This document shows positions 3,160 to 32,074 of a stretch of DNA of 44,376 nt, piece after piece (the stretch's first letter is position 1; every line of letters begins with the position of its first letter). This DNA is from a virus (lineage: Duplodnaviria > Heunggongvirae > Uroviricota > Caudoviricetes). The translations under genes and the position numbers were made by a program. The stretch spans positions 1-44,376 of IMG/VR virus record IMGVR_UViG_2541047881_000004. One strand, given 5' to 3'. A model generated the notes under the pieces. That model ran no database searches, was not told where the DNA came from, and was given only the letters and a program-made list of their open reading frames with translations.

Positions 3160-6030
3160 TTAGTATCCTATTGCTTCAAAATGCAAAGTCGGAATTTCGC
3201 CGAGATTGGGTGTCGTATACGACACAGTGAATCGCGTTCTTGATACGTCAGTGCCAGAATCAGTATCGCGATGCGTTGCCAGTGATTTCCCAGCCATTGA
3301 TGACTGGGTCGAAAAGCTGTAACTCGCTAGTGTTGCCAGCGTTGCTATTTGTGCATTTGGGAATTGTCTGGGGAAATTAACCCTGTAGTAATGGGTGTAG
3401 TACAGCACTCCACCAAGAGTAATTGCGTTGAAATTACCAACAGGCGTCAGTGTCACAGTACCAACCTGTCGAATCATACCATTTGGGAGAATATCCCAGG
3501 CAGTTTGTCCGTTTCGCGACATACCAAATGCGGACATGTCCGGGAGTTGATTATTACCGGTTCCGACATTACGTTTTGCCGCTTCTCCCAATTGAAGGTA
3601 TGCGAGAAGACCAGCTACATCCTTTCCACTCAAATTAGTCAGCGTATTGTCCAGCGGTTGTTTGCCCGCCAGTGCGCTCTGTACTTCGCTTTTGCTGTAG
3701 GCATCCAGATCTTTAGGCGTAAGCGTAATATCCTTCGTGCCGTCAAACGGAACGCCGTTGATATTCCGTGCAGTCTGTAGTTTTGTGGCAGTTGCAGCAT
3801 TACCAGTGGTGTTCTGATTACCCGTAGTGTTTACACCTGGAAGGTTAATATTTGCAGAACCGTCGAAAACAACTCCACCGATAGATCTTGCCGTCTGCAA
3901 TTTCGTGGCTGTAGCAGCATTTCCTGAAAGACTTGAAATAAATGGATGTGAACAGTAATAACCTCGTCCATTTTTAAAGTCCAAAATTATCTGTGCATTC
4001 GTACTTTCTGATAAAGGATCAGTTGCCCCCCACTTATAAGTGGTTTGACCAACTGCATAATCAGCCGTTGGAACAATCACATTTAATCCTTCCTCAGCAA
4101 AAATATGGATAGGGAATGCTCTTGTCTCAACGTAAAATACACTACACAAATCATCATCTTTCACGCTTGCGATAATCGAGTGTATAGCTCGCTCAGCAGT
4201 AGAATATATTGAGAAAAAACCAGCCGCATATGAATCGCGATCAGACCAACCGCCAGGCATAACAAACCCATTAAATTCACAATTATTCATGGCGTATCCG
4301 CCAGCTGAGGAATAAGTGGTGATAACCACTCGTGAGGCTAATTCATCTGCGCCACCACCAGTTCGGCGAAAGACTACAGGATACCACTTACCGCTTACTG
4401 CATTTGCAGGAGCAGAGAAAGTGTATTTTCGCATCCCCTTTTTCTTATCCACTTCACCTTTGCTGTAAACATTAATGTTACTCAGGAAGCGGCCCTTGTC
4501 TGGGATATCAGCGCCATTCTGATTCTTCGCCAATCGGCTATTCGCATTGTCATTCGCAGCTTTAACTGCCTTTGGAGTTGCGGCCAGCGATTCACTGGTG
4601 CTATCAACAGCACTGCTAAGTTTCACAACACCTTTAGTTGTAAGGCTTGCGTCTTCCATCGCAACTGCACCGGCAATCTCTTCAGCACGATCAGCAGCAG
4701 CTTCCGCACGGGTCGCAGCGGATTCAGCAGCAGTTTTGCTCTGAGATGCTGCCGTCGCACTGCCTGCCGCCTCTGTTGCTTTCGTGGATGCCGTCGTGGC
4801 GCTGCCCTTCGCTGCTGACGCCTGTCTGGTCGCCTCATCTTTTGAAGCAGACGCAGATGATGCCGATGACGCTGCCGAACTGGCGGACGATGCGGCTGCC
4901 GTTTTTGAGGATTCTGCACGGGTTTCCGACGCTTTCGCATTCGTTTCGGATGTCTTCGCTGTGGAAGCAGACCTCGCTGCTGCGCTGGCCTGTACAGCGG
5001 CTTCGCCAGCCTTCGTTGTGGCTGTTGAAGCGGACGATGCAGCACTTTCTGCCGATTTTCCGGCGGCGGTGGCACTGGCTGAGGCCTGCCCGGCACTTGT
5101 TGACGCGGCACTGGCAGACGACGCAGCCGCTGTTTTTGAGCCTGCCGCAGCTGAGGCACTCTGTCCCGCTGCCGTTTCAGAAGCCTTGGCGTTCGTCTCG
5201 GACGTTTTTGCCGCCTTCGCAGAATTTGCTGTCGCCGTTGCCGAGGAAGCTGCGCTGCTGGCGCTCGAGGCTGCGCTCGTTTCTGATGATTTTGCCGCCT
5301 CTTTTGAAGCCGACGCATCCCGGGCTGAGGTGGCAGCTTCTGACGCTTTCGTGGTTGCGGTGGATGCTGAAGTGGCTGCTGATTGTTGTGACGCTGCCGC
5401 ATTCGTTTCTGACGTTTTTGCCGCAGCGGCACTGGTGGCCGCCGCGCTTTTTGAGGACTCTGCAGCGGCAGCACTTTTTGATGCTTCAGTGGCCTTTGCT
5501 GATGCCGTTCCTGCGCTGGAAGACGCTGACTGAGCCGACGAAGCGGCCTGTCCGGCTGACGTGCTGGCTGCGCGTGCTGAGCCTGCAGCATCAGTCGCAT
5601 GGGTTGCCGCCTCACGGGCAGATGTGCCGGCATCGCCGGCTGACTTCTTCGCGGCTGCCGTGTTCTGTGCCACTGCGGACGCGTTACGCGCCACCTCTTC
5701 CACCATCAGTTCAAAACGGCGCAGTGCCTCTGGCCGGACATCATCCTCCGTCATTGCACCGAGGAAATCATTCAGTGTGCCCGGCTTTGAGTCCTCATAT
5801 ACGGTGATAATCCCGGCGTGTGACGGCGGGAATCCCTCCACCAACAGACTGACGCTGTACTGACCATACTCGACGTCCATTGTGTAACGCCCGGCTTCAT
5901 CCGGGTTTTCTGAGGCCACTGTGTTCACCACCACCGTGGTGCTGTTGCGCCTGGCCTTTAGCTGAATGGTGCAGTTTTGTATCGGCTTACCTGCGCCATC
6001 TTTCAGTACACCTGAAATCCGTACTGCCAT
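3160..6030 (-). CDS. stf: Side tail fibre protein Stf with long Ala/Ser/Thr-rich repeat region
   Basis: 956 aa; N-terminus MAVRISGVLKDGAGKPIQNCTIQLKARRNSTTVVVNTV... close to lambda Stf; internal low-complexity repeats (AKTSETNAKASET..., TSAGQASSA...). Confidence 0.9.
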   Translation of the reverse strand: MAVRISGVLKDGAGKPIQNCTIQLKARRNSTTVVVNTVASENPDEAGRYTMDVEYGQYSVSLLVEGFPPSHAGIITVYEDSKPGTLNDFLGAMTEDDVRPEALRRFELMVEEVARNASAVAQNTAAAKKSAGDAGTSAREAATHATDAAGSARAASTSAGQAASSAQSASSSAGTASAKATEASKSAAAAESSKSAAATSAAAAKTSETNAAASQQSAATSASTATTKASEAATSARDASASKEAAKSSETSAASSASSAASSATATANSAKAAKTSETNAKASETAAGQSASAAAGSKTAAASSASAASTSAGQASASATAAGKSAESAASSASTATTKAGEAAVQASAAARSASTAKTSETNAKASETRAESSKTAAASSASSAASSASSASASKDEATRQASAAKGSATTASTKATEAAGSATAASQSKTAAESAATRAEAAADRAEEIAGAVAMEDASLTTKGVVKLSSAVDSTSESLAATPKAVKAANDNANSRLAKNQNGADIPDKGRFLSNINVYSKGEVDKKKGMRKYTFSAPANAVSGKWYPVVFRRTGGGADELASRVVITTYSSAGGYAMNNCEFNGFVMPGGWSDRDSYAAGFFSIYSTAERAIHSIIASVKDDDLCSVFYVETRAFPIHIFAEEGLNVIVPTADYAVGQTTYKWGATDPLSESTNAQIILDFKNGRGYYCSHPFISSLSGNAATATKLQTARSIGGVVFDGSANINLPGVNTTGNQNTTGNAATATKLQTARNINGVPFDGTKDITLTPKDLDAYSKSEVQSALAGKQPLDNTLTNLSGKDVAGLLAYLQLGEAAKRNVGTGNNQLPDMSAFGMSRNGQTAWDILPNGMIRQVGTVTLTPVGNFNAITLGGVLYYTHYYRVNFPRQFPNAQIATLATLASYSFSTQSSMAGKSLATHRDTDSGTDVSRTRFTVSYTTPNLGEIPTLHFEAIGY

Positions 6031-6094: not shown

Positions 6095-6694
6095 TCAGAA
6101 TTTATAACCAACACCCACGATGAAACCGTCAGTGCGCCAGTCGCCACTGCCGGAGCCTTCATAAGCAATATCAATGGCCACGGATTCGATCGGGTTAAAC
6201 TGCACGCCAGCTCCCCACGCCAGAGACGTGTTGCTGTGGCGACCGTCATCACTTCCGGTCAGCACATCGTGCGTTTTCCCCTTGTTGTCAGTTACGCGGA
6301 GATAATCCCCGGAGAACGTCGAAACACGGCTGTAAGCCACACCTGCCATCGCATAAGCACTGAACCATTCATTCACGCGTACAGATGGCCCCGCCATCAT
6401 GCTGAACCAGCGGTTACGCACTGAATCTTCATGCCAGCGGGTATCGCTGTAATGCGTTTTTTGCTCATCTTTGGCATTGGCATAACTGAATGACGTCACC
6501 AGCCCCAGCGTGTCCGTAAATTCATAACGGTATTTCACGTTAATGCCCTTCAGGTCATCACTGCCTGGCATATCAGTATGGGCCTGAAGATACCCGGCGC
6601 TTAGTGTGGACTGATGCTCTGCTGCGCTCGCTGGCGTACCAGCGGCAACCAGCCAGACTACTGCGGACAGAATAACAGCACATAATTTACGCAT
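6095..6694 (-). CDS. lom: Lom-family outer membrane protein (Ail/OmpX/PagC beta-barrel family)
   Basis: 199 aa with signal peptide; C-terminus ...IAYEGSGSGDWRTDGFIVGVGYKF as in lambda Lom. Confidence 0.85.
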   Translation of the reverse strand: MRKLCAVILSAVVWLVAAGTPASAAEHQSTLSAGYLQAHTDMPGSDDLKGINVKYRYEFTDTLGLVTSFSYANAKDEQKTHYSDTRWHEDSVRNRWFSMMAGPSVRVNEWFSAYAMAGVAYSRVSTFSGDYLRVTDNKGKTHDVLTGSDDGRHSNTSLAWGAGVQFNPIESVAIDIAYEGSGSGDWRTDGFIVGVGYKF

Positions 6695-6760: not shown

Positions 6761-9700
6761 TCAGCTGATACTGATGCCTGCGGTGGCTTTCTTCATCACC
6801 ACAACCAGCAAATCGCTGATACTTGCTGTGGGATACCAGCCATTTACCCACCATGCTGATACCGAAAACTCCAGTGTCATTACGCCACTGCCTGCAGGCA
6901 TATCAATAACACCCGTGTAAATCAGAGTATTATCCAGAGCCGTTCGGTTATAAATTTCAGCCCCGTTTTTCTTCACTATCAGGCGGCATGACGAATAAGT
7001 ATCGCTATTCTCCCGTTCATGTCTGGCACCGCTGAAAGCCACCGCTGGAATAACAATTTGCCGGTCAAACGGCTGATCGTCATAAACCCTGACGGTAATG
7101 GTCCCTGATGGCCACCGTTCCGGTGCACGGGAGTCACGGGGGAAAGCTTTGCCCACTGTTTTAACGAGATCGCCTTCAATCTGGTTCGCGGACAGTTTTC
7201 CCAGAACCCGGCAGTTCTCGTTAATCGTGACGTTGTTGAGCGTCCCGGAGTTCGCATTCACGTTACCGCTGATATCGGCATTTTTTGCCGTCAGCCGCCC
7301 GTCCGGTGTCAGGGAAAATGCCGGAGGATTACCGCCGCTGGTAATGGTGGGAGCCGTCAGATATTTCAGGAACACTTCATTCATAAATATCTGATCGCCC
7401 TGACCAACAAACATCGGCTTTGTGTTGCCATTCGCAGGATTAATCATCGCAATCCTGTCCGCCGCCAGCAGCACCTGACTCTGCATACCGTCAGGGGTAT
7501 TCTCAATACCGGCACCAATACCCGCGATATAAAGGCGTCCGTCCTGCATCTGCTGCAGCTTCACAGCCCACATGCTGTTCAGGTTATTATTTGTATCAAC
7601 CTGAACCTTCTGTATCTGCTGAATTGCCGCACTCTGGTCTTCCAGTTTCTTATTGACGGTCTGCGTGATTTCATTGCTGACATCCGTAATGGACGTCCTG
7701 ATTTCAGCCAGGTCAGGCGCAAGCTGACCGTTATCAATCTGCGTCCACAGCTCCTGAGCCAGATGGCTTTTCCCTATCTCTCCTTTGAAAAAATCCAGAT
7801 AGCCGGATGCATCATCACTCGGCTGGCCAACAGCCTCCACAAATGCCGATTTGCCAACGGTGTTCACACTGCGGATGTAAAAATAATAATCATGGCCCGG
7901 TTTGATATTGATACTGGCGGCTATCCAGTACAGCGCCGTGCCAAGATAGCGGGCTGTGGTTTCAACCTGCCTGATATCGGTAATCCGCGTTTCCGAGAAC
8001 CAGAACTCAAACTGTACCGTCGGATCATAAACCGCAAGATGCGGCGTGGCAGTTATCTGAAAATAGCCCGGCGTCAGCTCAATCCGCGACGGCGCTGCCG
8101 GTGCGGCAATCCGGAACGATACCGACGCCGGATCGCCCTGCTGCCCCCACGCATTTACTGCCCGGACTGTCAGCCTGTAGTTCCCCAGCGCCAGTTGCCT
8201 GAAGCGGTATGTGGTTTCCGTCGTCCTGGCCGTGCTGACCAGCCGCTCACTGCCGTCGTCCGCTGCCACGGTCAGACGGAGCAGGAAGCTCACGCCCTTC
8301 ACCACCTTCGGCGTGTCCCAGCGCGCCAGCACCTGGTATTCCCCGCTGTCTGCGGTGACTTCGGCGGTCAGGTGCTGCACCGCTGGCGGCGTGACACCAT
8401 TCACCGTGCCGCTCTGGTCGCCGTCAAAGTGCGCCCCGTTATCCACGATGGCCTCTTTTTCCGGTACATGCTGCACGGCAGTGATGGCATACGTGCCGTC
8501 GTCGTTCTCACGGATACTCACGCAGCGGAACAGGCGCTGGCGCAGCGTCGGCAGCTTCAGCCCCCACACGCTGTATTCAGCAACACCGTCAGGAACACGG
8601 CTCACTTTTACCTTCACGCCGTCGGTGACGGACTGAACCTCCACGCTGACCGGATTGCCACTTCCGTCAACCAGGCTTATCAGCGTGGTACCGGAGGATG
8701 GCAGCGTGATTTCACGGTCGAGCGTCAGCGTCCGGGTCTGGCTGTTCACCGCCAGCACGCGCCCGCCGGTGCTGATACCGGCATAGTCATCATCGCAGAT
8801 TTCAATGACATCGCCCGGCACATGGCGAAGCCCTTCTGCGCCCACGCTGAAATCCACGGTCTGCGTTTCCAGCAGTTCCGTTTTAATCAGCCACAGCCCG
8901 GCGCGGTGTGCCTGCCCCCGGCTGGTACAGCCAAAGGCATCCATCTTCGTAACATTACGACCGTAACGGGCAATGGCCTGCGTATCTTCAACAAGCTCTG
9001 TCGCCGTCTCCCAGCCGTTATCCGGGTCAATCCAGTTCACCTCAACGGCATTATGGCGGTCCTTCAGGGCGCTGAAGCTGTAGCGGAACGGCGCGCCATC
9101 ATCCGGCATCACCACATTACTGCGGTTATAGGTCCACACCTTATCCGACGGTCGGTCCTGCACGAACGTCAGCGTCTGCCCGTTCCATACCGGCATACAG
9201 CGCATCGCCGAGCAGAAATCGCTGAGCACATCCCACGCCTTACGTTGTGTGGTCAGCCAGGCATTACAGGTGATGCGCGGCTCCGTGCCGCCAAAACCGT
9301 CCGGCACCGACTGGTCGCAGTACTGGCCGATGACATACAGCGCCCATTTATCCACATCTGCCGCACCAAGACGTTTCCCCATGCCGTAGCGCGGATGGGT
9401 CAGCATATCCCACAGACACCAGGCCATGTTGTTGCTGTATGCTGGCTTAAACGTTCCATCCCAGATACCGCTGTATTGCCGCGTCTGCGGGTTATAGTTC
9501 GACGGCACCTGCAGAATACGCCCGCGAAGATGATAATTACGGCTCACCTGCTGGCTGCCGAACTGCTCCGAATCCACCTGTACGCCGACCAGTGCCGTGT
9601 TCGGGTAGCACTGTTTCACATCGATGATTTCGGTGTATGACGACCAGAGCGTTTTGTTCTGCAGCTGGTCTGTGGTGCTGTCCGGCGTCATCCTGCGCAT

Positions 9701-10240
9701 CCGGATACTGAACGGGCGCGGCGGCAGGTTATCCACCACCACCGAGGCCAGATACTGTGAAGTGGTTTTACCCTTAATGGTGATGTCTTTTTCCGTCACC
9801 CAGCCACCGTTACGTTGTATCTGAACCAGCAGGCGGACTTCCGATGGATTCCTGTCCCCCTTTGAGGTGGTTTCCACCAGTGCCTGCACGCCGAAGGTAA
9901 AGCGCAGACGGTCGATGTTTGCAGACGTGATGGTCCGGGTGATCGGCGTGTCATATTTCACTTCCGTACCCAGCACCGTCTCGGATCCGGAGGATTCAAA
10001 TCCCTCCGGCGGTGTCTGCTCCTGCTCACCGGCCCGGAACACCACCGTGACGCCGGAGATATTGGTATTCCCCTCACTGTCCAGCACCGGTGTACTGTTC
10101 AGCAGCACGCTTTTTAATCCATCCACCGGACCTTCTATCGGCCCTTCGCTGATGGCATCGATCACACTCAGTAACTGCGTGGATTTCAGGTTGTCCTTCG
10201 CTTCGCGCGGGGTATGCCCCTTACTGCTGCCTTTACCCAT
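6761..10240 (-). CDS. J: Tail tip host-specificity protein J
   Basis: 1159 aa; lambda J-like over its whole length as recalled. Confidence 0.95.
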
Positions 10241-10300: not shown

Positions 10301-10972
10301 TCAGCGACCAATCACCACAACCTGACCACCATCCCCTTCGTCTGCCGTGCTGATCTCCTGAGAAACCACCCGCGACCCCACACGCATTTCACCGTACAGA
10401 ACAGGCAAAACATTGCCCTGGGCAACCATGTTATCCAGTGAGGAGAAATAGGTGTTCTGCTTACCGTTATCCGTTGTCTGTGTGCGGGGAGTTCTGGCTT
10501 TCGGTGCCAGCATCTGAGCCACACCGCCGAGCACCATACTGGCACCGAGAGAAAACAGAATGCCGGTCATACCACCGGCCCCAATGGCTGTCCCCCATGC
10601 TGCAAGGGTGGCTCCGGCGGTAAAGAATGATCCGGCAATGGCGGCTGCCCCCAGGACAATCTGGAATACGCCACCTGACTTGGCCCCGGCGACTCTGGGA
10701 ACGATATGAATCACAGCGCCGTCAGGCAGAGCCTCATGTAACTGCGCCGTTAATCCGGACGTGCTGACATCCTGCCCGGCAATACGTACCTGATACCAGC
10801 CGTCGCTCAGTTTCTGACGAAACGAAGGGAGCTGTGTGGCCAGCGCCCGGATGGCTTCAGCCCCCGTTTTCACACGAAGGTCGATGCGGCGGCCAAATCG
10901 TTGTAAATCCCCGTAAAGGCAGATGCGTGCCATGCCCGGTGACGCCAGAGGGAGTGTGTGCGTCGCTGCCAT
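10301..10972 (-). CDS. I: Tail assembly protein I
   Basis: 223 aa, MAATHTLPLASPGMARICLYGDLQRFGRR..., essentially lambda I; overlaps the 3' end of K by about 100 nt as in lambda. Confidence 0.95.
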   Translation of the reverse strand: MAATHTLPLASPGMARICLYGDLQRFGRRIDLRVKTGAEAIRALATQLPSFRQKLSDGWYQVRIAGQDVSTSGLTAQLHEALPDGAVIHIVPRVAGAKSGGVFQIVLGAAAIAGSFFTAGATLAAWGTAIGAGGMTGILFSLGASMVLGGVAQMLAPKARTPRTQTTDNGKQNTYFSSLDNMVAQGNVLPVLYGEMRVGSRVVSQEISTADEGDGGQVVVIGR

Positions 10973-11607
10973 TTGTCGGTATACCTCTCTCGTTTGCTCA
11001 GTTGTTCAGGAATATGGTGCAGCAGCTCGCCGTCACCACAGTAAATGGCGGCATGATTCGGCACAGATGAACCAAAACAGCACAGCAGCACATCGCCCGG
11101 CTGCGCCGCTGACAGCGGCACCTGATACAGCCCTGTGGCCTCCAGATTATCCAGATAGAGATTCTGACCGTTACGCCACCAGTCATCCTCACGATGAAAA
11201 TCCGGCATCTCAATCCCCGCCAGATGGTAAGCATCCCGGAACAGCGTGTAACAGTCCGTCACCCCGTGCTCAAAGAGCCGCCCGGTGAGATGCGGCACAC
11301 AGCGGAACTTATGAATCGCCCCCCGGCAGACCAGCCACCACGGCAAATCACTCTGCACCTGCAGTCGCCGGTCGGCCTCACTCAGCCAGGGCAGACCACC
11401 GGGGTGGCTGTGGACCAGCGCCACAACCTCACCCTGCATTTCTGCCTGCAGCCAGTCTTCCGGCGACATACGGAAATACGCCTCCGGCTCACCGGAGATA
11501 TTCACGCAGGGGAAATATCTTTCCCCCTCCGGCGCTCTCACCACGAAGCCGCACGACTCCGCTGGCGCACATCGCCGGGCGTGCGCCAATATATTGCTAT
11601 AGAGCAT
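10870..11607 (-). CDS. K: Tail assembly protein K (MPN/JAMM plus NlpC/P60-like)
   Basis: Lambda K-like (…VCGFVV…HSHPGG…); start set at ATG 11607 with an AGGAG RBS 5 nt upstream; the ORF is open to 11646 and lambda K is annotated shorter, so the start is uncertain. Confidence 0.85.
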   Translation of the reverse strand: MLYSNILAHARRCAPAESCGFVVRAPEGERYFPCVNISGEPEAYFRMSPEDWLQAEMQGEVVALVHSHPGGLPWLSEADRRLQVQSDLPWWLVCRGAIHKFRCVPHLTGRLFEHGVTDCYTLFRDAYHLAGIEMPDFHREDDWWRNGQNLYLDNLEATGLYQVPLSAAQPGDVLLCCFGSSVPNHAAIYCGDGELLHHIPEQLSKRERYTDKWQRRTHSLWRHRAWHASAFTGIYNDLAAASTFV

Positions 11608-11618
11608 GAGAACTCCTG

Positions 11619-11642
11619 ATAAAAAACCCAGCCGAAGCTGGG
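11619..11642 (-). terminator. Intrinsic terminator between ant and K
   Basis: Minus-strand RNA CCCAGC-UUCG-GCUGGG followed by UUUUUUAU. Confidence 0.6.
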
Positions 11643-11661
11643 TCATTTCGTTGGCAATCTG

Positions 11662-12597
11662 TTAGTAGTGATGCAGTGAAGGAGGTAATTCTTTGTTCTT
11701 AAGCCTTACCCATGCGGAAAGATTCGTTGGTCCGTCTGGCTCATTAATATCAACATCTCGTGTGTGATTGATTAAAACGTCTCTCGCCATTCCAATAACA
11801 TACGAGAACTCATGGCCGTAGTCGTAGCACCTGCCAAAATAGTTTGATTGAATTTGCTTTAGCGCCGGATACAGTTCGCGGAATAATGCCTGTGAGCGGT
11901 TGGCATAATCCCATAACCATACAAGGCTGTTTGCTTCTTTTGCAGAAAGCTCGTTGGTTTTCTTCTCTTGTTTTCCGATGAATTCGCCTTCAAGTGGAAT
12001 ACGAGCAGCAAGTGACAGTGCTTCGGTAAACTGCTCCTCACTGATTTCTTTGTACGAACATCCAAAATGGGATTTCAGTGACGACCACATGGTGATCATC
12101 GCCTTCGCCTGTTTTTCTTTTGGCAGAGACTGACCGCGACTCATGACGAGTTGTTTAATAGCTTCCTGCTGTTCAGTGGTGATTTTACCCGGCAACGCCT
12201 TTTTAGCTTTGCGCGGGTTAACCACATGGCCTTTAGTCCAGTAGTCATGCAGCACAGTAAAGCATTCTTCCTGGTACTGAATCAGTTTATCGCGGATGTC
12301 AGCACGAACTTTCTCAGGGTTGATGCTGAACAGCCATCCATTTAACTTCTTCAAAGGAAGGCAGAGTAGCTTACGAAGCTTCCCATCAGCAGCAACCATA
12401 TTCATATGAATACAGTTGAACTTATCTAGTTGTTTCATAAGTTTTTGTTGCTGAGTACCCCAGCTCATTCCGAGGTTTTCAACGATTGGCTTCATCGCAA
12501 CATATGCAACTCCTGCAGCCATGGCGGTGATAATTTGCTGACCGTTGAAGGATACGTAAGAGGTGCTCACTGCTTCTAAAATTGCTATACTATTCAT
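11662..12597 (-). CDS. ant: Antirepressor (P22 Ant-like)
   Basis: 312 aa from ATG 12597 ([10 protein letters not shown]...); sits downstream of an arc-like gene as in the P22 immI operon; longest ORF extends to 12720 but those codons overlap arc (alternative start 12678). Confidence 0.7.
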
Positions 12598-12669
12598 ATC
12601 AGTTTTCTCGTAGTTAACTGGTAATTTAGAAGCCTCAATGGTTGCAGCCATTGAGGCTTCGCTGTTTTT
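12598..12669 (+). ncRNA. sar: Candidate sar-like antisense RNA covering the ant translation-initiation region
   Basis: Plus-strand extended -10 element TGCTATACT (12583-12591) inside the 5' end of ant; about 72 nt downstream a 13-bp perfect stem (12629-12641 / 12648-12660, GAAGCCTCAATGG...CCATTGAGGCTTC) followed by GCTGTTTTT; by analogy with P22 sar. Confidence 0.35.
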
Positions 12670-12841
12670 AGCGACCATTCGCCACCTCTTCCCTAACACC
12701 TTTTGCCAGCAAACGAACAATTGCAGAGTTCAGAGATATACAGTCCATTTCCGCCAGGCGGCGAAGGTCTTCATTCAGCCGTGATGGAAGGCGAAGGTTG
12801 AGTTTGATATTTTTGCGCTCAGTGAAAAGTGTATCTTGCAT
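12668..12841 (-). CDS. arc: Arc-like ribbon-helix-helix repressor
   Basis: 57-aa ORF below the track size cutoff, translated by hand: [57 protein letters not shown]; matches the Arc/Mnt pattern NLR.P...L....AE....S.NS.I; GGAG RBS 8 nt upstream. Confidence 0.65.
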
Positions 12842-12948
12842 TATCTAATCTCCTTTATGTGGTGCCAAAGTGACGCCATGAAGGCCATAATGCCACCATT
12901 GAAATCGTATGGCAATATGGCACCATGATTTTTTTTGAGAGATTTGCA
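12842..12948. promoter_or_regulatory. Divergent promoter/operator region between arc-ant and mnt
   Basis: On the minus strand TTGCCA-17 nt-CATTAT reads toward arc; repeated ATGGTG(C/G)CA motifs are operator candidates. Confidence 0.4.
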
Positions 12949-13269
12949 ATGGCCGAAAAACAAGTAAAAGACTACGACAAGTTCAACCTCCGTTTTCCTG
13001 ACGGAATGCGAGATGCTATAGCTGAACGAGCCAAACGAAACGGGCGCTCTATGAACTCAGAGATTGTTCAGATACTGGAAGATGCCTTGAATGCAGAAAA
13101 TACACTCGGGGAAATAGCAGATAAAATTAACAGCGTCTCGGTTCCGCTAAATGTTGATGCGCTAGTTCAACTTCAAGCCCAGGTTATCGCCATGCAAAAA
13201 GAAATACAGGAAAAGTTCAGAGAGCAGAACGAAAAGTTGAGAGAACTGCTAAACAAAAAACCCACCTGA
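12949..13269 (+). CDS. mnt: Mnt-like ribbon-helix-helix repressor
   Basis: 106 aa from ATG 12949; ...FNLRFPDGMRDAIAERAKRNGRSMNSEIVQILEDAL closely matches P22 Mnt (...NGRSMNSELLQIVQDAL); transcribed divergently from arc-ant. Confidence 0.75.
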   Translation: MAEKQVKDYDKFNLRFPDGMRDAIAERAKRNGRSMNSEIVQILEDALNAENTLGEIADKINSVSVPLNVDALVQLQAQVIAMQKEIQEKFREQNEKLRELLNKKPT

Positions 13270-13276
13270 CGGTGGG
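13251..13276 (-). terminator. Intrinsic terminator downstream of L, overlapping the mnt stop codon
   Basis: Minus-strand RNA CCCACC-GUCA-GGUGGG followed by UUUUUUGUUU. Confidence 0.55.
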
Positions 13277-13285
13277 CATAATCCA

Positions 13286-13984
13286 TTACTGCGAAAGTTT
13301 GTTAATGGAAAGGAAGCCGCCAAAGTTGCCGACGTTATTGCGAAACTTACAGCCGCTCAGGCATTTGCTGCATTTATCCTTCGTGATATCGGACGTCGGC
13401 TGGTCATATTCATCCGCGACAGCCGGACCGTGATAACCGCACTCATCACCGCGATAGGTCCAGGTGCAGGTGTTGGCCAGCATGATACGTCCCGGAAAAA
13501 CAGCGCCGTCCGTTTCCGTCGGCGTGGACAGTACAAAGGAGGCACTGACCGCGCTCAGTTCGCTGCACTGCTCGATGCGCCAGCGACTGATCACCTCCTG
13601 CTCCGGATCGGCGTCGCTGTTTCCGTTGACGAAGTTCACCGCATCCAGAAAACGGGCGTAAACCTTACGCCTGACCACCGTTCCGCCGACCAGACTCTGC
13701 AGATCTTCCGCCATCCCGGTGACCATACCGTACAGGTTAGAAACCGTCAGCGTGGGGCGCGTACTGGTGCCTTTGCCATTCAGTTCAAAACCGCTCCCCT
13801 GAATGGGATACGCCTGATACTGTCGCCCCTGCCAGGTGACCGGCTCACCTTTTTCGTTCTGCTCATTACAGAAAAAATAACGTTCTCCACCGACCTCTGT
13901 CAGATCGATCTCCCAGAGCACCACGCTGGCCGACTGCTCCGCACGGGTGCATTCATTCAGTGTTTCCTGCCGGATATCCTGCAT
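13286..13984 (-). CDS. L: Tail tip protein L
   Basis: 232 aa, MQDIRQETLNECTRAEQSAS..., lambda L-like. Confidence 0.95.
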   Translation of the reverse strand: MQDIRQETLNECTRAEQSASVVLWEIDLTEVGGERYFFCNEQNEKGEPVTWQGRQYQAYPIQGSGFELNGKGTSTRPTLTVSNLYGMVTGMAEDLQSLVGGTVVRRKVYARFLDAVNFVNGNSDADPEQEVISRWRIEQCSELSAVSASFVLSTPTETDGAVFPGRIMLANTCTWTYRGDECGYHGPAVADEYDQPTSDITKDKCSKCLSGCKFRNNVGNFGGFLSINKLSQ

Positions 13985-14313
13985 CAGTTCACCACCTGTT
14001 CAAACTCTGCGCTGAACTCAACACGCAGCATACTGACCCGCGACGACCATTTTGCGCAGGTCACCTTTATCTGCCGCCACTCATAAGGCGGCGTCCACAG
14101 AAAGGCTTTCCAGCCCCCGTGCTCTTCCAGAAATGACTCCAGTACCGTGGCCTCCTCACGGGGGACAGAAAGCGTCACGCTGTACGTTTTCAGGTTGGCA
14201 TTCAGCCCGGCAGGCGCTCGCTGTGAATAGCCATCACCAAAGCGCACCTTTCTTACAGAAGGGGCCGAAGCCACATCCATACCGGGTTTCACTTTCCAGC
14301 GGAAGGTTTTCAT
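13984..14313 (-). CDS. M: Tail tip protein M
   Basis: 109 aa, lambda M-like; stop overlaps the L start. Confidence 0.95.
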   Translation of the reverse strand: MKTFRWKVKPGMDVASAPSVRKVRFGDGYSQRAPAGLNANLKTYSVTLSVPREEATVLESFLEEHGGWKAFLWTPPYEWRQIKVTCAKWSSRVSMLRVEFSAEFEQVVN

Positions 14314-16889
14314 CGTCCACCTCCGGAGAACAGGCCACCATCACGCATCTGCCCGGTCACAACATCCATTGCCGCCTTACGGGCTACGTCATAAACCGCC
14401 TTCAGCGCCTGTGGCCCTATCTGACCGTTCGTGCCGTCGTTGTTAATCACCACATGGTTATTCTGCTCAAACTTCCCGGACGCCTGCGACCGGCTGTCCG
14501 CCATGCTGCCCGGTGTACCGACATAACCGCCGGTGGCATAGCCGCGCATCAGCCGGTAAAGATTCCCCACGCCAATCCGGCTGGTTGCCTCCTTCGTGAA
14601 GACAAATTCACCACGATGAACAATCCCCGCAGGCTCATATTTGCCGCCGGTTCCCGTAAATCCTCCGGTCGCAAAATGGAATTTCGCCGCAGCTGCCTGA
14701 ATGGCTGTACCGCCTGACGCCGATGCGCCACCACCAACAGCTCCGCCAATGGCGCTGCCAATACTCCCGACAATCCCCACCATTGCCTGCTTAAGCAGAA
14801 TTTCTGTCATCATGGACAGCACGGAACGGGTGAAGCTGCGCCAGTTCTGCTCACTGCCGGTCAGCATCGCCGCCATATTCTGTGCAATACCATCAAAGGT
14901 CTGCGTGGCTGCACTTTTAACCTGCGACATACTGTCCGTGGCGCTCTCTTCCCACTCACTCCAGCCGGACTTCAGGCCTGCCATCCAGCTCCCGCGAAGC
15001 TGGTCTTCAGCCGCCCAGGTCTTTTTCTGCTCTGACATGACGTTATTCAGCGCCAGCGGATTATCGCCATACTGTTCCTTCAGGCGCTGTTCCGTGGCTT
15101 CCCGTTCTGCCTGCCGGTCAGTCAGCCCCCGGCTTTTCGCATCAATGGCGGCCCGTTTTGCCCGTTGCTGCTGTGCGAATTTATCCGCCTGCTGCGCCAG
15201 CGCGTTCAGGCGCTCCTGATACGTAACCTTGTCGCCAAGTGCAGCCAGCTGGCGTTTGTACTCCAGCGTCTCATCTTTATGCGCCAGCAGGGATTTCTCC
15301 TGTGCAGACAGCTGGCGACGTTGCGCCGCCTCCTCCAGTACCGCGAACTGACTTTCTGCCTTCCACAAATCCCGGCGCTGCTGGCTGATTTTCTCATTCG
15401 CTCCGGCATGCTTCTCCAGCATCCGGAGTTCTGCCTGAAGCGTCAGCAGGGCAGCATGAGCACTGTCTTCCTGACGATCGCCCGCAGACACTTTCACGCC
15501 GGACTGCTTCGGCTTTTTCAGCGTCGCTTCATAGTCCTTTTTCGCCGCCGCCATCAGCGTGTTGTAATCTGCCTGCAGGATTTTTCCGTCTTTCAGAGCC
15601 TTATTCAGTTCCTCCTGGCGGGCGGTATATTTCTCCAGCGGTGTCTGCAGGCGTTCGTAAGCCTTCTGCGCCTCTTCGGTATATTTCAGCCGTGATGCCT
15701 CAGACTCGGCCCAGTCCTTTGCTGCCATCTCTCTGGCCTTTTCAAGATCGGCCTGCAACGTGGCGGCTGAAAGCCCAAGTTGCGCATTCGCTCTGTCCTC
15801 CCATGCTCCCCGGAGATTGGCAAGAAATGCTGAGGTTTTACCGCGCCGGTGGCTCCGGCTCTGATACCACTGCCATTTTTTGTCCGCCTCATCAAAAGCC
15901 TTTTCTGCTTTCTCCAGCATTCCCTGGGCAGTGTCCGGGCGACCAATATCCAGCACCGAATCCCACATGGATTTGAATGCCCGCGCTGTCCTGTCTGCCC
16001 AGGTCTCCAGCGTGCCCATGTTCTCTTTCAGGCGGCGGGTCTGGTCATCAAACCCTTTCGTTGCGGCTTCGTTCGCCGCCTGCAATGCCCCGGCTTCATC
16101 TCCGGAACGCTGCAACTGAGCAACATACGCAATCTGCTCCGCCGTCACGTTATGGAACTGACGTGCCATCGCTGTCAGTCCCGACGTCGGGTCTGTGGTC
16201 AGCTTCCCGAAGGCTTCAGCGACCTTGTCCACCTCCACGCCGGATGCAGAGGAGAAACGCGCCACACTCTGGCTGATCGCCTCAAACTGCTCACCACCAC
16301 GCACACCGGCATTCACCAGCGCCGTCAGTGACTCGCTGGTCTGGTTAAACGTCAGCCCTGCCGCCTGCCCGGCTCTGGACAGGGCCAGAATACGATCTGC
16401 CGTCAGTCCCGCCTGATTGCCGGAAAGGACCAGCGTTTTGTTGAAATCGGACAGGGTTGAGTTGCCCTGATACCAGGCATACGCCAGCGCACCGGTCGCC
16501 ACCGCCAGCGAGGTGGCCCCCACCATCGGCAGGGTGATCGCACCGGCAAGCCCCCTGAACATGGGGATCATCCCGCCGAAGGAGTCCTTAACCTGACCAC
16601 CCTGTTGCAGCAGGATCAGCCACGGACTTTGCCCGCCTGCAAGCTGCGTGGCCACGTCGGTGAACTGTGCAGGCAGCATACGCATGGCGGCTTTATACTG
16701 CCCGACGGAAATCCCCGCTTTCTGTGCAGCCAGCGCCTGTCGGCTCAGCGACTGTTCAACGACTGCCGCTGTTTTTTTCGCATCAGTTTCCGTACCGGAA
16801 AAATGACGCCTGACTCTGGCCATCTGCTCGTCAAATCTGGCCGCATCCAGACTCAAATCAACGACCAGATCGCCTACCGGTTCAGCCAT
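14310..16889 (-). CDS. H: Tail tape measure protein H
   Basis: 859 aa, MAEPVGDLVVDLSLDAARFDEQMARVRRHF..., lambda H-like. Confidence 0.95.
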   Translation of the reverse strand: MAEPVGDLVVDLSLDAARFDEQMARVRRHFSGTETDAKKTAAVVEQSLSRQALAAQKAGISVGQYKAAMRMLPAQFTDVATQLAGGQSPWLILLQQGGQVKDSFGGMIPMFRGLAGAITLPMVGATSLAVATGALAYAWYQGNSTLSDFNKTLVLSGNQAGLTADRILALSRAGQAAGLTFNQTSESLTALVNAGVRGGEQFEAISQSVARFSSASGVEVDKVAEAFGKLTTDPTSGLTAMARQFHNVTAEQIAYVAQLQRSGDEAGALQAANEAATKGFDDQTRRLKENMGTLETWADRTARAFKSMWDSVLDIGRPDTAQGMLEKAEKAFDEADKKWQWYQSRSHRRGKTSAFLANLRGAWEDRANAQLGLSAATLQADLEKAREMAAKDWAESEASRLKYTEEAQKAYERLQTPLEKYTARQEELNKALKDGKILQADYNTLMAAAKKDYEATLKKPKQSGVKVSAGDRQEDSAHAALLTLQAELRMLEKHAGANEKISQQRRDLWKAESQFAVLEEAAQRRQLSAQEKSLLAHKDETLEYKRQLAALGDKVTYQERLNALAQQADKFAQQQRAKRAAIDAKSRGLTDRQAEREATEQRLKEQYGDNPLALNNVMSEQKKTWAAEDQLRGSWMAGLKSGWSEWEESATDSMSQVKSAATQTFDGIAQNMAAMLTGSEQNWRSFTRSVLSMMTEILLKQAMVGIVGSIGSAIGGAVGGGASASGGTAIQAAAAKFHFATGGFTGTGGKYEPAGIVHRGEFVFTKEATSRIGVGNLYRLMRGYATGGYVGTPGSMADSRSQASGKFEQNNHVVINNDGTNGQIGPQALKAVYDVARKAAMDVVTGQMRDGGLFSGGGR

Positions 16890-27859: not shown

Positions 27860-27915
27860 AGCAATTTAGATAATCGTGCAGACTACGCCCCTCATATCAC
27901 ATGGAAGGTACTACA

Positions 27916-28326
27916 ATGGCTCAGGTTGCCATTTTTAAACAAATATTCGATAAAGTGCGAAATAATTTAAACTATCACTGGTTTTATTCTGAACTAAAAC
28001 GTCACAATGTCTCACATTACATTTACTATTTAGCCACAGAGAATATTCATCTTGTTCTTGAAAACGATAATACGGTTTTAATAAAAGGACAGGGTAAGGT
28101 TGTAAATGTAAGATTTTCAAAAAATAAATGCCTTATAGAAGCCACCTTAAAAGGATTCAAATCAGGAGAGTTATCATTTTACGAATACAGGAAAAATCTT
28201 GCTACAGCAGGGGTTTTCAGATGGATTACAAATATCCACGAAAACAAAAGGTATTACTATACCTTTGATAATTCATTACTCTTTACTGAGAACATTCAGA
28301 ACACTACACAAATATTTCCGCACTAA
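27916..28326 (+). CDS. Hypothetical protein of the YbcV family (DUF name recalled as DUF1398), homologue of the lambda cos-proximal gene (recalled as orf-78)
   Basis: 136 aa from ATG 27916 (GGAAGG RBS); AT-rich; lambda-like. Confidence 0.7.
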
Positions 28327-28612: not shown

Positions 28613-28870
28613 CTACTTCGCTTTTGCTTCCGCTCGCTTACGCCGGCGCTCTTCTTTCCTCTCGGCTTTTGCCATGTCCATGAATGCCTGCATGATCGAG
28701 TTCCGCATCATGTAGCTAACAAAGTGATGATTGACACAGCCGTTGAGGCGCAGCTGCTCGCCAAACTCGTCCACCGAGGCCAATGCTTCCATCATGCCCT
28801 TCTCGCCTTTCATGAACTCTGAGAAGTCGCGCCCCGCTCTGGAGGCGCATTCAATAACATGATCACTCAT
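28613..28870 (-). CDS. Hypothetical protein (85 aa, basic C-terminal tail)
   Basis: ORF coupled to the upstream KilA-N gene (stop/start overlap); no family recognised. Confidence 0.55.
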   Translation of the reverse strand: MSDHVIECASRAGRDFSEFMKGEKGMMEALASVDEFGEQLRLNGCVNHHFVSYMMRNSIMQAFMDMAKAERKEERRRKRAEAKAK

Positions 28871-29364
28871 CCCGGAAGCCCGGGGATCGTAATCTGCAGC
28901 TGGTTAGCCAGGGAGTTAATCTCAGCGACCAACACTGGCTTCGTATAGCGCCATGCTGCCAGCCCTTGTCCGCAGAAGCTCGCCATGTCTTTCTTCTGGT
29001 CAAACTCATGACATTTCATGTTGAGCTGCGCACTTAAGCTGTTGCGATGCTGAAGTTCTCCGGTGAAGTAGTCATCGAGGACTTTATAGGCCGCGTACTT
29101 GAACCCGGGGTTTAACCAAGCCGCATAATCGTAAGCAACAAACTTCCCGCCATATGTTCCACCGTGTACACCGCGCTCAGTAAAAACCACAGATTCGTGG
29201 TTTTTCTCCAGCTCGGCTAAGAACTCTTTGGTCTGCTTGTTTCGCAGGTAGTGGTAAGGCGATTCAGATTCACTTTTACCACTGGCTTTCCACATATCAG
29301 TGAGGCAGATCATGCCATCTTCACCGATACGAATTGGTTGATTGAAGAGGGTTAATGATTTCAT
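28867..29364 (-). CDS. KilA-N domain protein
   Basis: 165 aa, MKSLTLFNQPIRIGEDGMICLTDMWKASGK... resembles the KilA-N / Bro-N DNA-binding domain; occupies the slot that bor holds in lambda but on the opposite strand. Confidence 0.55.
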   Translation of the reverse strand: MKSLTLFNQPIRIGEDGMICLTDMWKASGKSESESPYHYLRNKQTKEFLAELEKNHESVVFTERGVHGGTYGGKFVAYDYAAWLNPGFKYAAYKVLDDYFTGELQHRNSLSAQLNMKCHEFDQKKDMASFCGQGLAAWRYTKPVLVAEINSLANQLQITIPGLPG

Positions 29365-31450: not shown

Positions 31451-32074
31451 CTAACGTGTGACCGCATTCAAAATGTTGTCTGCGATTGACTCTTCCTTGT
31501 GGCATTGCACCACCAGAGCGTCATACAGCGGCTTAACAGTGCGTGACCAGGTGGGTTGAGTAAGGTTTGGGATTAGCATCGTTACAGCGCGATATGCGGC
31601 GCTTGCTGGCATTCTTGAATAGCCGACACCTTTGCATCTTCCGCACTCTTTCTCAACAACTCTCCCCCACTGCTCTGTTTTGGCTATATCAACCGCCCGA
31701 CCTGTACCGTGGCAATCCCTGCATCTTGCGCCCGGCGTCGCGGCACTACGGCAATAATCCGCATAAGCGAATGTTGCGAGCACTTGCAGTACCTTTGCCT
31801 TAGTATTTCCTTCAAGCTTTGCCACACCACGGTATTTCCCCGATACCTTGTGTGCAAATTGCATCAGATAGTTGATAGCCTTTTGTTTGTCGTTCTGGCT
31901 GAGTTCATGCTTACCGCAGAATGCAGCCATCCCGAATCCGGCCTGTGATTGTGCCATCCCCATAGCAGCCATCACATCAGTACCGGAAAGAGAGTCAGAA
32001 GCCGTAGCCCGTGGTGAGTCGCTCATCATCGGGCTTTTTGGCGAATGAAATTTAGCTACGCTTTCGAGTCTCAT
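31451..32074 (-). CDS. Q: Late gene antiterminator Q (lambda type)
   Basis: 207 aa, MRLESVAKFHSPKSPMMSDSPRATASDSLSGTDVMAAMG..., matches lambda Q as recalled. Confidence 0.95.
   Translation of the reverse strand: MRLESVAKFHSPKSPMMSDSPRATASDSLSGTDVMAAMGMAQSQAGFGMAAFCGKHELSQNDKQKAINYLMQFAHKVSGKYRGVAKLEGNTKAKVLQVLATFAYADYCRSAATPGARCRDCHGTGRAVDIAKTEQWGRVVEKECGRCKGVGYSRMPASAAYRAVTMLIPNLTQPTWSRTVKPLYDALVVQCHKEESIADNILNAVTR

Follow-up and report, generated by a model that had tools for sequence, protein, structure and literature searches.

What is the segment that separates tail genes L and K in this lambda-type E. coli prophage, and could it act on the repressor of the prophage that carries it? An earlier note on the window (the whole 44,376-nucleotide stretch of DNA analysed here) had proposed that the segment reproduces the immI locus of phage P22. 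Our analysis points the same way: with a probability of roughly 0.85, we read it as a complete and intact P22-type immI 'ant moron', placed as a unit, terminator to terminator, between L and K, and presumed to work by a P22-like mechanism. The junction and its edges comprise the following features.

13286-13984, minus strand: tail gene L (Pfam Phage_tail_L, E 7e-101), adjoining the cassette on its upstream side (late strand)
13250-13277, minus (late-operon) strand: intrinsic terminator after L, stem at 13277-13260, 9 nt past the L stop codon; left edge of the cassette
11615-11644, minus strand: intrinsic terminator after ant, stem at 11644-11625 followed by a T-run; right edge of the cassette
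10870-11607, minus strand: tail gene K (JAB and NlpC/P60 domains), true start at 11607, with 5' codons and ribosome site rebuilt by the insertion

Comparison with the lambda junction sets the size of the insert at 1,678 bp (11608-13285), as against 5 bp in lambda, because the lambda K-homologous reading frame opens 5 nt after the L stop codon. The gap of about 1.7 kb given in the earlier note thus stands, while the lambda spacing of about 150 bp to which it was compared does not: a 1-nt difference shifts the annotated K start of lambda downstream, and the larger gap exists only in the annotation. The insert has replaced the first codons of K, which read MTQTESAIL in lambda and MLYSNIL here, and K has a ribosome site that is new in the window (AGGAG, 11613-11617); the same K start is found in the RefSeq annotation of strain c1-17. 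Terminators had been noticed after both L and ant, and the terminator scan placed them within a few bases of those positions. The one after L has a 7-bp stem with 5 GC pairs, followed by TTTTTGTTTA, and its hairpin also contains, on the opposite strand, the final codons and stop of the mnt-like gene; it is missing at the lambda L-K junction and is identical in phages WGPS8 and JLK-2012. The one after ant has an 8-bp stem, again with 5 GC pairs, followed by TTTTATCAGG, and ends a few bases upstream of the K ribosome site. It accompanies ant in phage UPF_BP1, where the match extends to position 11621 of the window, as well as in JLK-2012. A moron is an independently transcribed insert in a phage operon. 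The cassette fits this definition, since its GC content is low (42-47%, versus 55-63% across the flanking tail genes) and it has a promoter and terminators of its own; it is moreover present in some and absent from other syntenic relatives.

Between the two terminators lie three protein-coding genes.

11662-12597, minus strand: antirepressor gene ant, 311 aa (Pfam P22_AR_N, E 2e-44, and P22_AR_C, E 5e-29)
12668-12841, minus strand: Arc-like ribbon-helix-helix (RHH) gene, 57 aa, first gene of the arc-ant operon
12949-13269, plus strand: Mnt-like RHH repressor gene, 106 aa, divergent from arc-ant

Open reading frames and Pfam domains confirmed these as the mnt-, arc- and ant-like genes that had been named beforehand, and alignment with the P22 proteins upheld the assignment to a degree that differs from one protein to the next. 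Ant aligns with P22 Ant from end to end (68% identity, E 3e-158) and matches the PHROG family of anti-repressor Ant proteins (phrog_245, E 1e-96); among PDB structures it has no sequence relative. Its identity reaches 95% with the Ant protein of the P22-like Salmonella phage UPF_BP1 and falls to 76% with the variant found in O157 strains and Stx phages, the difference residing in the N-terminal domain of about 120 residues. Here this domain is of the P22/UPF_BP1 type, replacing the O157 type, and outside the swapped domain the two proteins are about 98% or more identical. At the L-K site, the P22/UPF_BP1-type domain was found only in strains c1-17, TUM1880, and TUM3755.

The arc-like reading frame lies on the same strand as ant, 70 nt upstream of it, and is preceded by a ribosome site (AAGGAG, 12853-12848). 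Its product scores 22.1 bits against Pfam Arc (cut-off 20.4), shares 30% identity with P22 Arc over 40 residues (E 7e-6), matches the Arc-like repressor family of PHROG (E 7.6e-7), gives a weak match to Arc in the PDB (E 0.12), and is 95% identical to a protein of phage SPN3UB annotated as an Arc-like repressor. For the Mnt-like protein, the match to Pfam Arc is much stronger (E 1.4e-20); residues 7-48 align with residues 3-44 of P22 Mnt, that is, the RHH domain, at 50% identity, and matches were also obtained with PDB entry 1mnt (E 1.4e-7) and phrog_1287 (E 5e-51). The protein consists of an N-terminal RHH domain and a long C-terminal helical region, for which a single-sequence AF2 model of low confidence (pLDDT 64.5), read for secondary structure only, predicts helices at residues 20-30, 37-62, and 69-102. 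It has 106 residues versus 83 in P22 Mnt, and the C-terminal halves are unrelated, no sequence similarity to the tetramerisation region of P22 Mnt being found past residue ~48. Both RHH repressors carry a Lys-x-Asn-x-Arg pattern in the DNA-reading strand. Judged by sequence, the Arc-like and Mnt-like proteins are distant RHH relatives of their P22 counterparts, and only ant and the putative sar stand close to P22.

The last of these, sar, had not figured in the earlier note.

12583-12668 (RNA approximately 12598-12668), plus strand: sar-like antisense RNA gene in the arc-ant spacer, across the ant ribosome site

Its predicted promoter has an extended -10 element (TGcTATACT, 12583-12591) located within the first codons of ant, with the 5' end of the RNA predicted at 12598; this element and this start line up with the Psar and sar annotated in P22. 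Two hairpins are predicted in the RNA, one at its 5' end and the other a terminator of 14 bp (12629-12660) that runs into a stretch of T; the ant ribosome site is complementary to the RNA, which also overlaps the stop codon of arc. The match to Rfam family RF00262 is full length, at 29.8 bits (E 0.0024), a value below the gathering score of 43. The calculated fold has an energy of -32.3 kcal/mol (z -6.3), and the 5 sequences compared keep all 20 base pairs, although at 5 of these pairs both partners have changed. Matches to the family occur at the same place in all related cassettes, with scores ranging from 95.6 down to 29.5 bits. This putative fifth immI component makes the match with P22 stronger than had been claimed at first.

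The divergent mnt-like and arc-like genes are separated by a short region in which the control elements would be expected to lie.

12842-12948, no strand assigned: control region, 107 bp between the mnt-like and arc-like genes, with the arc/ant promoter and clustered repeats (candidate operators)
12887-12915, minus strand: Pant-like promoter into arc and ant, -35 TTGCCA (12915-12910), 17-nt spacer, -10 CATTAT (12892-12887), with a TG upstream

The promoter scan recovered, at 12915-12887, the very TTGCCA-17-CATTAT element that had been described as reading toward arc, with 9 of 12 positions matching the consensus; at the corresponding position, SPN3UB, two Klebsiella phages, and phage Oslo carry TTGACA and a TG-extended -10. 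With this promoter in place, the content, order, and orientation of the genes as well as the flanking terminators agree with the proposed P22 immI arrangement inside a lambda-type tail operon. Overlying the predicted arc/ant promoter are repeats and dyads: the motif RTGGYGBCA occurs four times (12859-12867 on the plus strand; 12871-12879, 12891-12899, and 12918-12926 on the minus strand), and two 19-nt direct repeats (12863-12881 and 12910-12928) are accompanied by nested dyads. The window as a whole has 12 matches to the motif, and these four all lie inside 68 bp; the motif was itself defined after inspection of the control region. Dyad arms are likewise found on either side of the promoter in the SPN3UB relative.

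For the mnt-like gene, the promoter scan suggested GTGCCA-18-CATAAT (12862-12891), and a weak, mirror-image candidate (ATGCCA-17-CAATAT, 12890-12918) was picked out by eye; when relatives were scanned, conservation of an mnt promoter was not confirmed. The scan also gave a second candidate on the minus strand, TTGGCA-17-GATAAT (12868-12840), whose -10 overlaps the arc start codon, which makes it an improbable promoter for arc. When the 107-bp control region was aligned to P22, only scattered identities were obtained, with no similarity to Oarc or Omnt, so the P22 operator assignments are not transferable. Given this dissimilar operator region and the distance of the Arc-like and Mnt-like proteins from those of P22, the locus is, as far as sequence comparison can tell, a heteroimmune immI. 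Two other modes of control were considered and rejected. LexA/SOS control lacks its site, no LexA box (CTGT-N8-ACAG, at most one mismatch) being present at 11600-13300; control of the P1/P7 immI type (C4 antisense RNA-icd-ant) lacks its RNA, as the Rfam scan gave no match to C4 or isrK in 11300-13600.

How widely is this arrangement distributed? Among 5,426 complete genomes of E. coli, 301 contain its regulator half, most of these being STEC, and in 252 genomes its conservation is 99% or higher; the STEC carriers include O157, O111, and O26, with at most 3 copies per genome. The cassette is also present in Stx phages 2851, YYZ-2008, 1717, and Stx2a_WGPS4/6/8 and in Sakai-type Sp prophages. Relatives without the insertion, to which the earlier note had looked for comparison, are readily found: the junction is empty in lambda, and a contiguous L-K junction is far commoner in E. 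coli than an occupied one (4,320 genomes, 10,596 places). The cassette is not unusual, for hundreds of E. coli genomes and of Shiga-toxin phages already have it annotated at the L-K site. Ant genes of Stx phages are counted in PMC8136144, and the antirepressors of the Sakai prophages are tabulated in PMC2669165; in the full texts searched, we found no account of the L-K site nor any test of the cassette.

Other sites harbor the cassette or its Mnt type as well, namely the slot between gene 16 and the tailspike gene in P22, the tail operons of SPN3UB/Oslo and of Klebsiella phages, and the nin region of JLK-2012, where it sits beside a truncated ant and is adjoined by C4 and isrK RNAs. This occurrence at several sites identifies the cassette, on comparative grounds, as a mobile 'ant moron'. 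JLK-2012 as a proof of terminator-to-terminator mobility was accepted in part only: its left junction falls in GGATTATGCC microhomology with the resident truncated ant and its right side shares ant homology, so recombination between ant genes could account for it.

Could Ant act on the repressor of this phage? The CI protein encoded in the window has HTH and S24 autocleavage domains and hardly differs from lambda CI in its C-terminal domain. P22 Ant is reported, in a passage of PMC3121763 that cites Susskind and Botstein (1975), to inactivate the repressors of lambda, 21, L, and P22; the Discussion of the same paper treats the natural role of Ant as unsettled even in P22. That Ant could override CI, as the earlier note had suggested, is plausible. 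For SOS induction it would not be needed, because CI has an S24 autocleavage domain of its own.

We infer each binding and regulatory step of the following scheme from P22. In the lysogen, the Mnt-like protein, made from its own promoter, would bind the repeats over the arc/ant promoter and keep Ant off, while the terminator after L would guard the cassette against stray upstream transcription. Upon infection, or when Mnt is lost, the arc/ant promoter would fire and the Arc-like protein and Ant would be produced together; the Arc-like protein would then close the promoter and sar would pair with the ant ribosome site, limiting Ant to a short burst. Ant would inactivate CI-type repressors by non-covalent binding, independently of RecA, its targets being the phage's own CI, through the lambda-type C-terminal domain, and probably the CI proteins of co-resident lambdoid prophages. 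During lytic growth, Q-modified polymerase would pass both terminators, permitting expression of K, I, and J.

A bolder extension of this scheme, which we regard as speculative and rather unlikely, would make the cassette a Mnt-gated, RecA-independent second induction route for lambda-tailed prophages, including Stx1- and Stx2-converting ones. It would also switch on heteroimmune neighbours, the swapped N-terminal domain of Ant would set which repressors are targeted, and both RHH repressors would read one shared repeat array, differing only in spacing or oligomeric state. In P22, the operators of Arc and Mnt are separate. One shared array, if true, would amount to a regulatory logic unlike that of P22.

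The same parts could, nevertheless, have been selected for something other than the phage's own lysis-lysogeny switch. Ant might serve crosstalk or competition by striking the repressors of heteroimmune lambdoid prophages, for example Stx prophages in STEC, a possibility that we take seriously even though we hold it at clearly less than even odds. The concentration of the cassette in polylysogenic STEC (O157, O111, O26) is consistent with such a role, and so is the fact that the phage's own CI already possesses S24 autocleavage; P22 Ant has a broad repressor specificity, is dispensable for the P22 life cycle, and has been proposed to play a coupling role (PMC3121763). A change of targets would also fit the swap of the Ant N-terminal domain between lineages whose Ant proteins are otherwise ~98% identical. 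Such a role does not, however, preclude self-targeting, as the C-terminal domain of the window CI is of the lambda type and the lambda repressor is a reported target of P22 Ant. It is improbable, by comparison, that the insert acts chiefly as a transcriptional attenuator or insulator, adjusting the output of K, I, and J against that of the upstream tail genes by means of its terminators and the convergent transcription of mnt, with Ant activity a by-product. Two late-strand terminators do bracket the insert, K restarts a few bases past the second, and in P22 the ant moron has been discussed as affecting tailspike level in a similar way, possibly by accident (PMC2629481); yet about 10,000 E. 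coli L-K junctions function without any insert, and an attenuator has no need of 1.7 kb of intact, conserved coding sequence and an antisense RNA.

Degraded ant morons are known in some P22-like phages (PMC2629481), and a truncated ant lies beside the cassette in JLK-2012, either of which might suggest an inert or decaying passenger with no present function. All three reading frames are, however, full length, the matches span both Ant domains, and the promoters, sar helices, and terminators are intact; with a regulator half at least 99% identical in 252 genomes, we consider decay very improbable. Least credible of all is a toxin-antitoxin or anti-phage defence module in place of an antirepressor circuit. 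Its pointers are weak HicB and FitA-like RHH matches in Pfam, one Arc-like copy in an O111:H8 genome that PGAP names a HicB-family antitoxin, and related RHH families labelled 'partition protein ATPase' in PHROG, but these labels reflect the common RHH fold or propagated misannotation, since P22 mnt itself bears the name 'partition protein ATPase' in RefSeq. The large protein, for its part, is 68-95% identical to genuine Ant proteins, and the Pfam scan found no toxin domain in the cassette proteins. We therefore retain the P22-type immI 'ant moron' as the preferred reading.

Should the cassette act as it does in P22, roughly 5% of the complete genomes of E. coli would hold a CI-inactivating switch that is independent of DNA damage; STEC, together with several Shiga-toxin phages, are strongly over-represented among the carriers. 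A switch of this kind would bear on spontaneous and cross-prophage induction, and therefore on toxin release and phage spread. The locus also illustrates modular phage evolution, with one terminator-bounded cassette recurring in the late operons of podoviruses, two kinds of tail operon in siphoviruses, and a nin region. Specialists are unlikely to be surprised, since the components are classic ones and public records already carry an automatic annotation of the locus.

Set beside known systems, the cassette resembles P22 immI most closely. The window has a counterpart, a predicted one in the case of sar, for each of the five P22 components, with order and orientation unchanged (in P22: mnt, Pmnt/Pant, arc, sar, ant, followed by a terminator and a tail gene); each of the two cassettes is embedded in a late operon, where ant is followed by a terminator and then a tail gene, and the predicted sar shares its promoter and both helices with that of P22. 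In P22, by contrast, immI lies between gene 16 and the tailspike gene, whereas here it occupies the L-K junction of a lambda-type siphovirus, with an additional late-strand terminator upstream and without sieA or hkc. The concept of an 'ant moron', along with its possible effect on the expression of downstream tail genes, was developed for P22-like phages (Villafane et al. 2008, PMC2629481). The cassettes of Stx and other lambdoid prophages (2851, YYZ-2008, 1717, WGPS4/6/8, and the Sakai Sp prophages) share the L-K junction itself and are identical or at least 99% so in the mnt-like gene, control region, arc-like gene, sar, the C-terminal two thirds of ant, both terminators, and rebuilt K start; they are annotated as encoding an anti-repressor Ant and an Arc-like repressor or Arc family DNA-binding protein. 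In the ES18-like siphoviruses SPN3UB, vB_SosS_Oslo, and the Klebsiella phages, a divergent Mnt-like gene is likewise followed by an Arc-like gene and an antirepressor gene, with the same promoter geometry and a sar-family RNA (48 bits in SPN3UB, above the Rfam cut-off). Their cassettes differ in site, lying between the major-tail/chaperone genes and the tape measure gene, and in cargo, which comprises a Bro-N/Rha-type antirepressor and additional KilA-N and regulator genes. With GfoA/GfhA of the Gifsy prophages, AntC of N15, and Tum of 186, the shared principle is a small accessory module that inactivates the main repressor non-covalently (PMC3121763); those systems are LexA-controlled, whereas the cassette in the window carries genes for two RHH repressors and a putative antisense RNA.

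The late operon of this lambdoid prophage lies on the minus strand, and the interval between its tail genes L and K is occupied by an insert with a GC content of 42-47%, against 55-63% for its flanks. The earlier note had described three ORFs in this gap, arranged as in P22 immI within a lambda-like tail operon, with terminators following L and ant. The three ORFs were recovered with exactly the same coordinates, the gene order matched, and a consensus scan placed both terminators on the minus strand.

Tail genes, insert genes and terminators around the L-K junction
6761-10240, minus strand: tail gene J
10301-10972, minus strand: tail gene I
11644-11625, minus strand: intrinsic terminator after ant
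11662-12597, minus strand: ant, 311 aa; Pfam P22_AR_N (E 2e-44) and P22_AR_C (E 5e-29)
12668-12841, minus strand: arc-like gene, 57 aa; Pfam Arc, 22.1 bits, narrowly passing the threshold of 20.4
12949-13269, plus strand: mnt-like gene, 106 aa; Pfam Arc (E 1.4e-20)
13277-13260, minus strand: intrinsic terminator after L
13286-13984, minus strand: tail gene L
13984-14313, minus strand: tail gene M
14310-16889, minus strand: tail gene H

Alignment with the annotated P22 genome bore out the proposed kinship: Ant is 68% identical to P22 Ant over its whole length, the Mnt-like protein 50% identical to P22 Mnt in the ribbon-helix-helix (RHH) domain only, and the Arc-like protein 30% identical to P22 Arc over 40 residues. 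A PDB sequence search matched the Mnt-like protein to Mnt (1mnt), Arc and AmrZ, and the Arc-like protein weakly to Arc, with no match for Ant; the PHROGs search returned 'anti-repressor Ant' (E 1e-96) plus Arc-like families. Where Arc and Mnt have the beta-strand that reads DNA, the Arc-like (IKLNLRLP) and Mnt-like (DKFNLRFP) proteins both carry Lys-x-Asn-x-Arg; the corresponding residues are Gln-x-Asn-x-Arg in P22 Arc and His-x-Asn-x-Arg in P22 Mnt. The pattern common to the two window proteins suggests that they may recognize the same half-site. RefSeq names P22 mnt (NC_002371, 14519-14770) 'partition protein ATPase', a name inherited by PHROG families 795 and 2685, and PGAP names the Arc-like gene of one O111:H8 genome 'HicB family antitoxin'; on these RHH genes such labels are annotation noise.

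The component overlooked by the earlier note is a sar-like antisense RNA. The 70-nt arc-ant spacer carries, on the plus strand and antisense to ant, a hairpin of 14 bp with a T-run after it. The whole of the Rfam sar model RF00262 matches at 12597-12663 (+), but its score of 29.8 bits (E 0.0024) falls short of the gathering score, 43. The predicted fold of this stretch has an energy of -32.3 kcal/mol (z = -6.3). On alignment, the first ~45 nt of ant, where the annotated Psar of P22 lies, are almost identical between the window and P22, and the extended -10 TGcTATACT is retained at 12583-12591, which would place the RNA start near 12598, adjoining the ant ATG as in P22. Every related cassette compared has a sar match at the same spot, scoring 95.6 and 94 bits in the P22-like phages UPF_BP1 and N7, 48 in SPN3UB, 37.6 and 34.8 in the Klebsiella phages, and 29.5 in the O157 type (the variant of O157/Stx-phage cassettes). 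Both helices keep 20 of 20 base pairs in all five aligned sequences, with five pairs changed on both sides; as no more than two or three lineages are covered by these sequences, the conservation supports the RNA but does not prove it. The terminator hairpin is kept, with compensatory changes, in seven sequences. With this sar-like RNA, counterparts of all five P22 immI components appear to be present.

The 107-bp control region between the mnt-like and arc-like genes showed no useful similarity to P22 Oarc/Omnt. The promoter previously proposed to read toward arc, TTGCCA-17-CATTAT, was found by consensus scan at 12915-12887 (-), with an upstream TG, and its -35 and TG-extended -10 occupy the same alignment columns in the diverged SPN3UB, two Klebsiella phages and Oslo. 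The region also holds two copies of a 19-nt direct repeat (12863-12881 and 12910-12928), nested dyads, and, within 68 bp, four copies of RTGGYGBCA, a motif defined post hoc, versus 12 in the whole 44-kb window. The dyad arms flanking the promoter co-vary, TGGTGCCA...TGGCACCA in the window becoming TGGGGCCA...TGGCCCCA in SPN3UB. Scans of the window and its relatives settled no conserved mnt promoter.

A gap of about 1.7 kb had been set against about 150 bp in lambda. The former was measured at 1,678 bp (11608-13285); the latter agrees with the RefSeq annotation (148 bp) but not with the alignment, in which the lambda frame homologous to K opens 5 nt past the L stop (TAAatcccATG). A one-base difference in the 5' part of K (lambda GAGGC-TATTTCC vs GAGGCGTATTTCC; lambda NC_001416 1126-1300, window 11450-11650) breaks this frame, so that the annotation starts lambda K at a later ATG, and the true comparison is with 5 bp. 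The right-hand junction of the insert falls within K, whose first codons read MLYSNIL here vs MTQTESAIL in lambda, and a new AGGAG ribosome site for K lies at 11613-11617, past the ant terminator. The 99.9% identical genome c1-17 has this K start in its RefSeq annotation. The annotated lambda K has 199 aa and would lack the N-terminal portion of its JAB domain; the longer frame of ~245 aa, starting 5 nt after L, is PGAP's choice in c1-17. Matches to a 311-base lambda query in E. coli prophages span 312 bases.

Over the 1.8-kb region, E. coli c1-17 is 99.9% identical to the window, and TUM1880 and TUM3755 are 98.7-98.9% identical; in these genomes PGAP names a 'phage antirepressor N-terminal domain-containing protein' and two 'Arc family DNA-binding protein' genes. 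The regulator half (12600-13285) occurs in 301 of 5,426 complete E. coli genomes, at full length in 273 and at no less than 99% identity in 252; among the matches listed, a sampled ranking, the serotypes are largely O157:H7, O111 and O26. In the phage collection, the same L-K site is used in Stx phages 2851, YYZ-2008, 1717, Stx2a_WGPS4/6/8 and others. Prophages without the insertion, a comparison proposed in the earlier note, are far commoner: the junction is contiguous in lambda and in 4,320 genomes (10,596 places); an occupied junction is the minority condition and the derived one. Only in the first ~120 ant codons does the window depart from the O157 type; these codons are P22-like in the window, and its Ant is 95% identical to that of Salmonella phage UPF_BP1 vs 76% to the O157 type.

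Phage JLK-2012 carries the cassette in its nin region, where a truncated ant and a P1-type C4/isrK RNA are its neighbours. In SPN3UB, Oslo and Klebsiella phages the cassette or its Mnt type is found between tail chaperone and tape measure genes, there with other antirepressor cargo. It also occurs in IMG/VR contigs, adjacent to a P22 gene-16 homologue, and at L-K junctions of tail operons themselves diverged (L identity 69 to 100%). With this occurrence at several sites, the cassette behaves as a moron.

In JLK-2012, the mnt-arc-sar-ant cassette (3467-4834) directly follows the truncated ant at a GGATTATGCC microhomology, and upstream of that gene are Rfam matches for P1-type C4 antisense RNA, its a1/b1 targets and isrK; since the cassette adjoins this C4/isrK-linked gene, two different antirepressor control systems are fused head to tail. 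In IMG/VR contig 2547132402_000004, an mnt/arc/antirepressor-type cassette (Mnt 50%, Arc 58% identical) sits between L and K of a lambda-type tail operon that is far more diverged (identity to the window 69% for L and 68% for K); the L-K junction thus seems a long-standing or repeatedly used slot for modules of this kind. The window itself carries two moron-like genes, a DUF1398 gene (27901-28326, +) on the opposite strand between lysis and packaging genes, and a lom (Ail/Lom) outer-membrane protein gene (6095-6694, -) after J. Its side tail fibre gene (3160-6030, -) is followed downstream by a second tail-fibre C-terminal segment on the opposite strand (2066-2530, +) and a tail fibre assembly gene (2503-2943, +), and a 92-aa ORF (1711-1989, -) covers just the N-terminal portion of a serine resolvase/invertase domain; the arrangement resembles a Gin/Pin-type invertible host-range segment with an invertase that may be truncated.

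The P22 scheme, in which Mnt represses the arc/ant promoter, Arc and Ant are co-expressed, sar intervenes and Ant acts against repressors, is summarised in PMC2629481 and PMC3121763. By homology, the Mnt-like protein would repress the arc/ant promoter in the lysogen; on promoter firing, the Arc-like protein and Ant would be made together, the former shutting the promoter while sar blocks translation of ant, and Ant would bind and inactivate CI-type repressors. In the lysogen, the terminator after L would guard against read-through into ant, and Q-modified polymerase (Q gene, 31451-32074) would pass both terminators to transcribe K, I and J. HTH and S24 domains are present in the window's CI (38440-39141), whose C-terminal domain differs from that of lambda CI by one residue, and PMC3121763, citing Susskind and Botstein 1975, reports that P22 Ant acts on lambda repressor; self-targeting of this CI by Ant is therefore plausible. 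A motif search found no LexA box in the cassette, and Ant is not needed for SOS induction of this prophage. Two further antirepressor-like or Bro/KilA-type genes are present, one in the nin region (32958-33626, -; ANT (KilAC) and Rha domains) and one between lysis and packaging genes (28867-29364, -; KilA-N and ORF11CD3 domains).

Cross-prophage induction in polylysogens could be the selected role, the most interesting variant and one compatible with the main model. That the cassette attenuates K/I/J expression is unlikely in view of some 10,000 L-K junctions without an insert. It could be an inert passenger, but its parts are intact and conserved; it could likewise be a toxin-antitoxin or defence module, but its large protein is a true Ant, and the labels that databases derive from the RHH fold mislead.

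The reading of the insert as a P22 immI-like module is thus supported, and is extended by sar, the exact junctions and the mobility evidence. The literature searched yielded no paper describing the L-K site or testing the cassette, which is already auto-annotated in hundreds of public genomes, well-known Stx phages included. It is a further case of a classic, well-studied kind, the P22-like equivalent of which was described by Villafane et al. as the 'ant moron' (PMC2629481).
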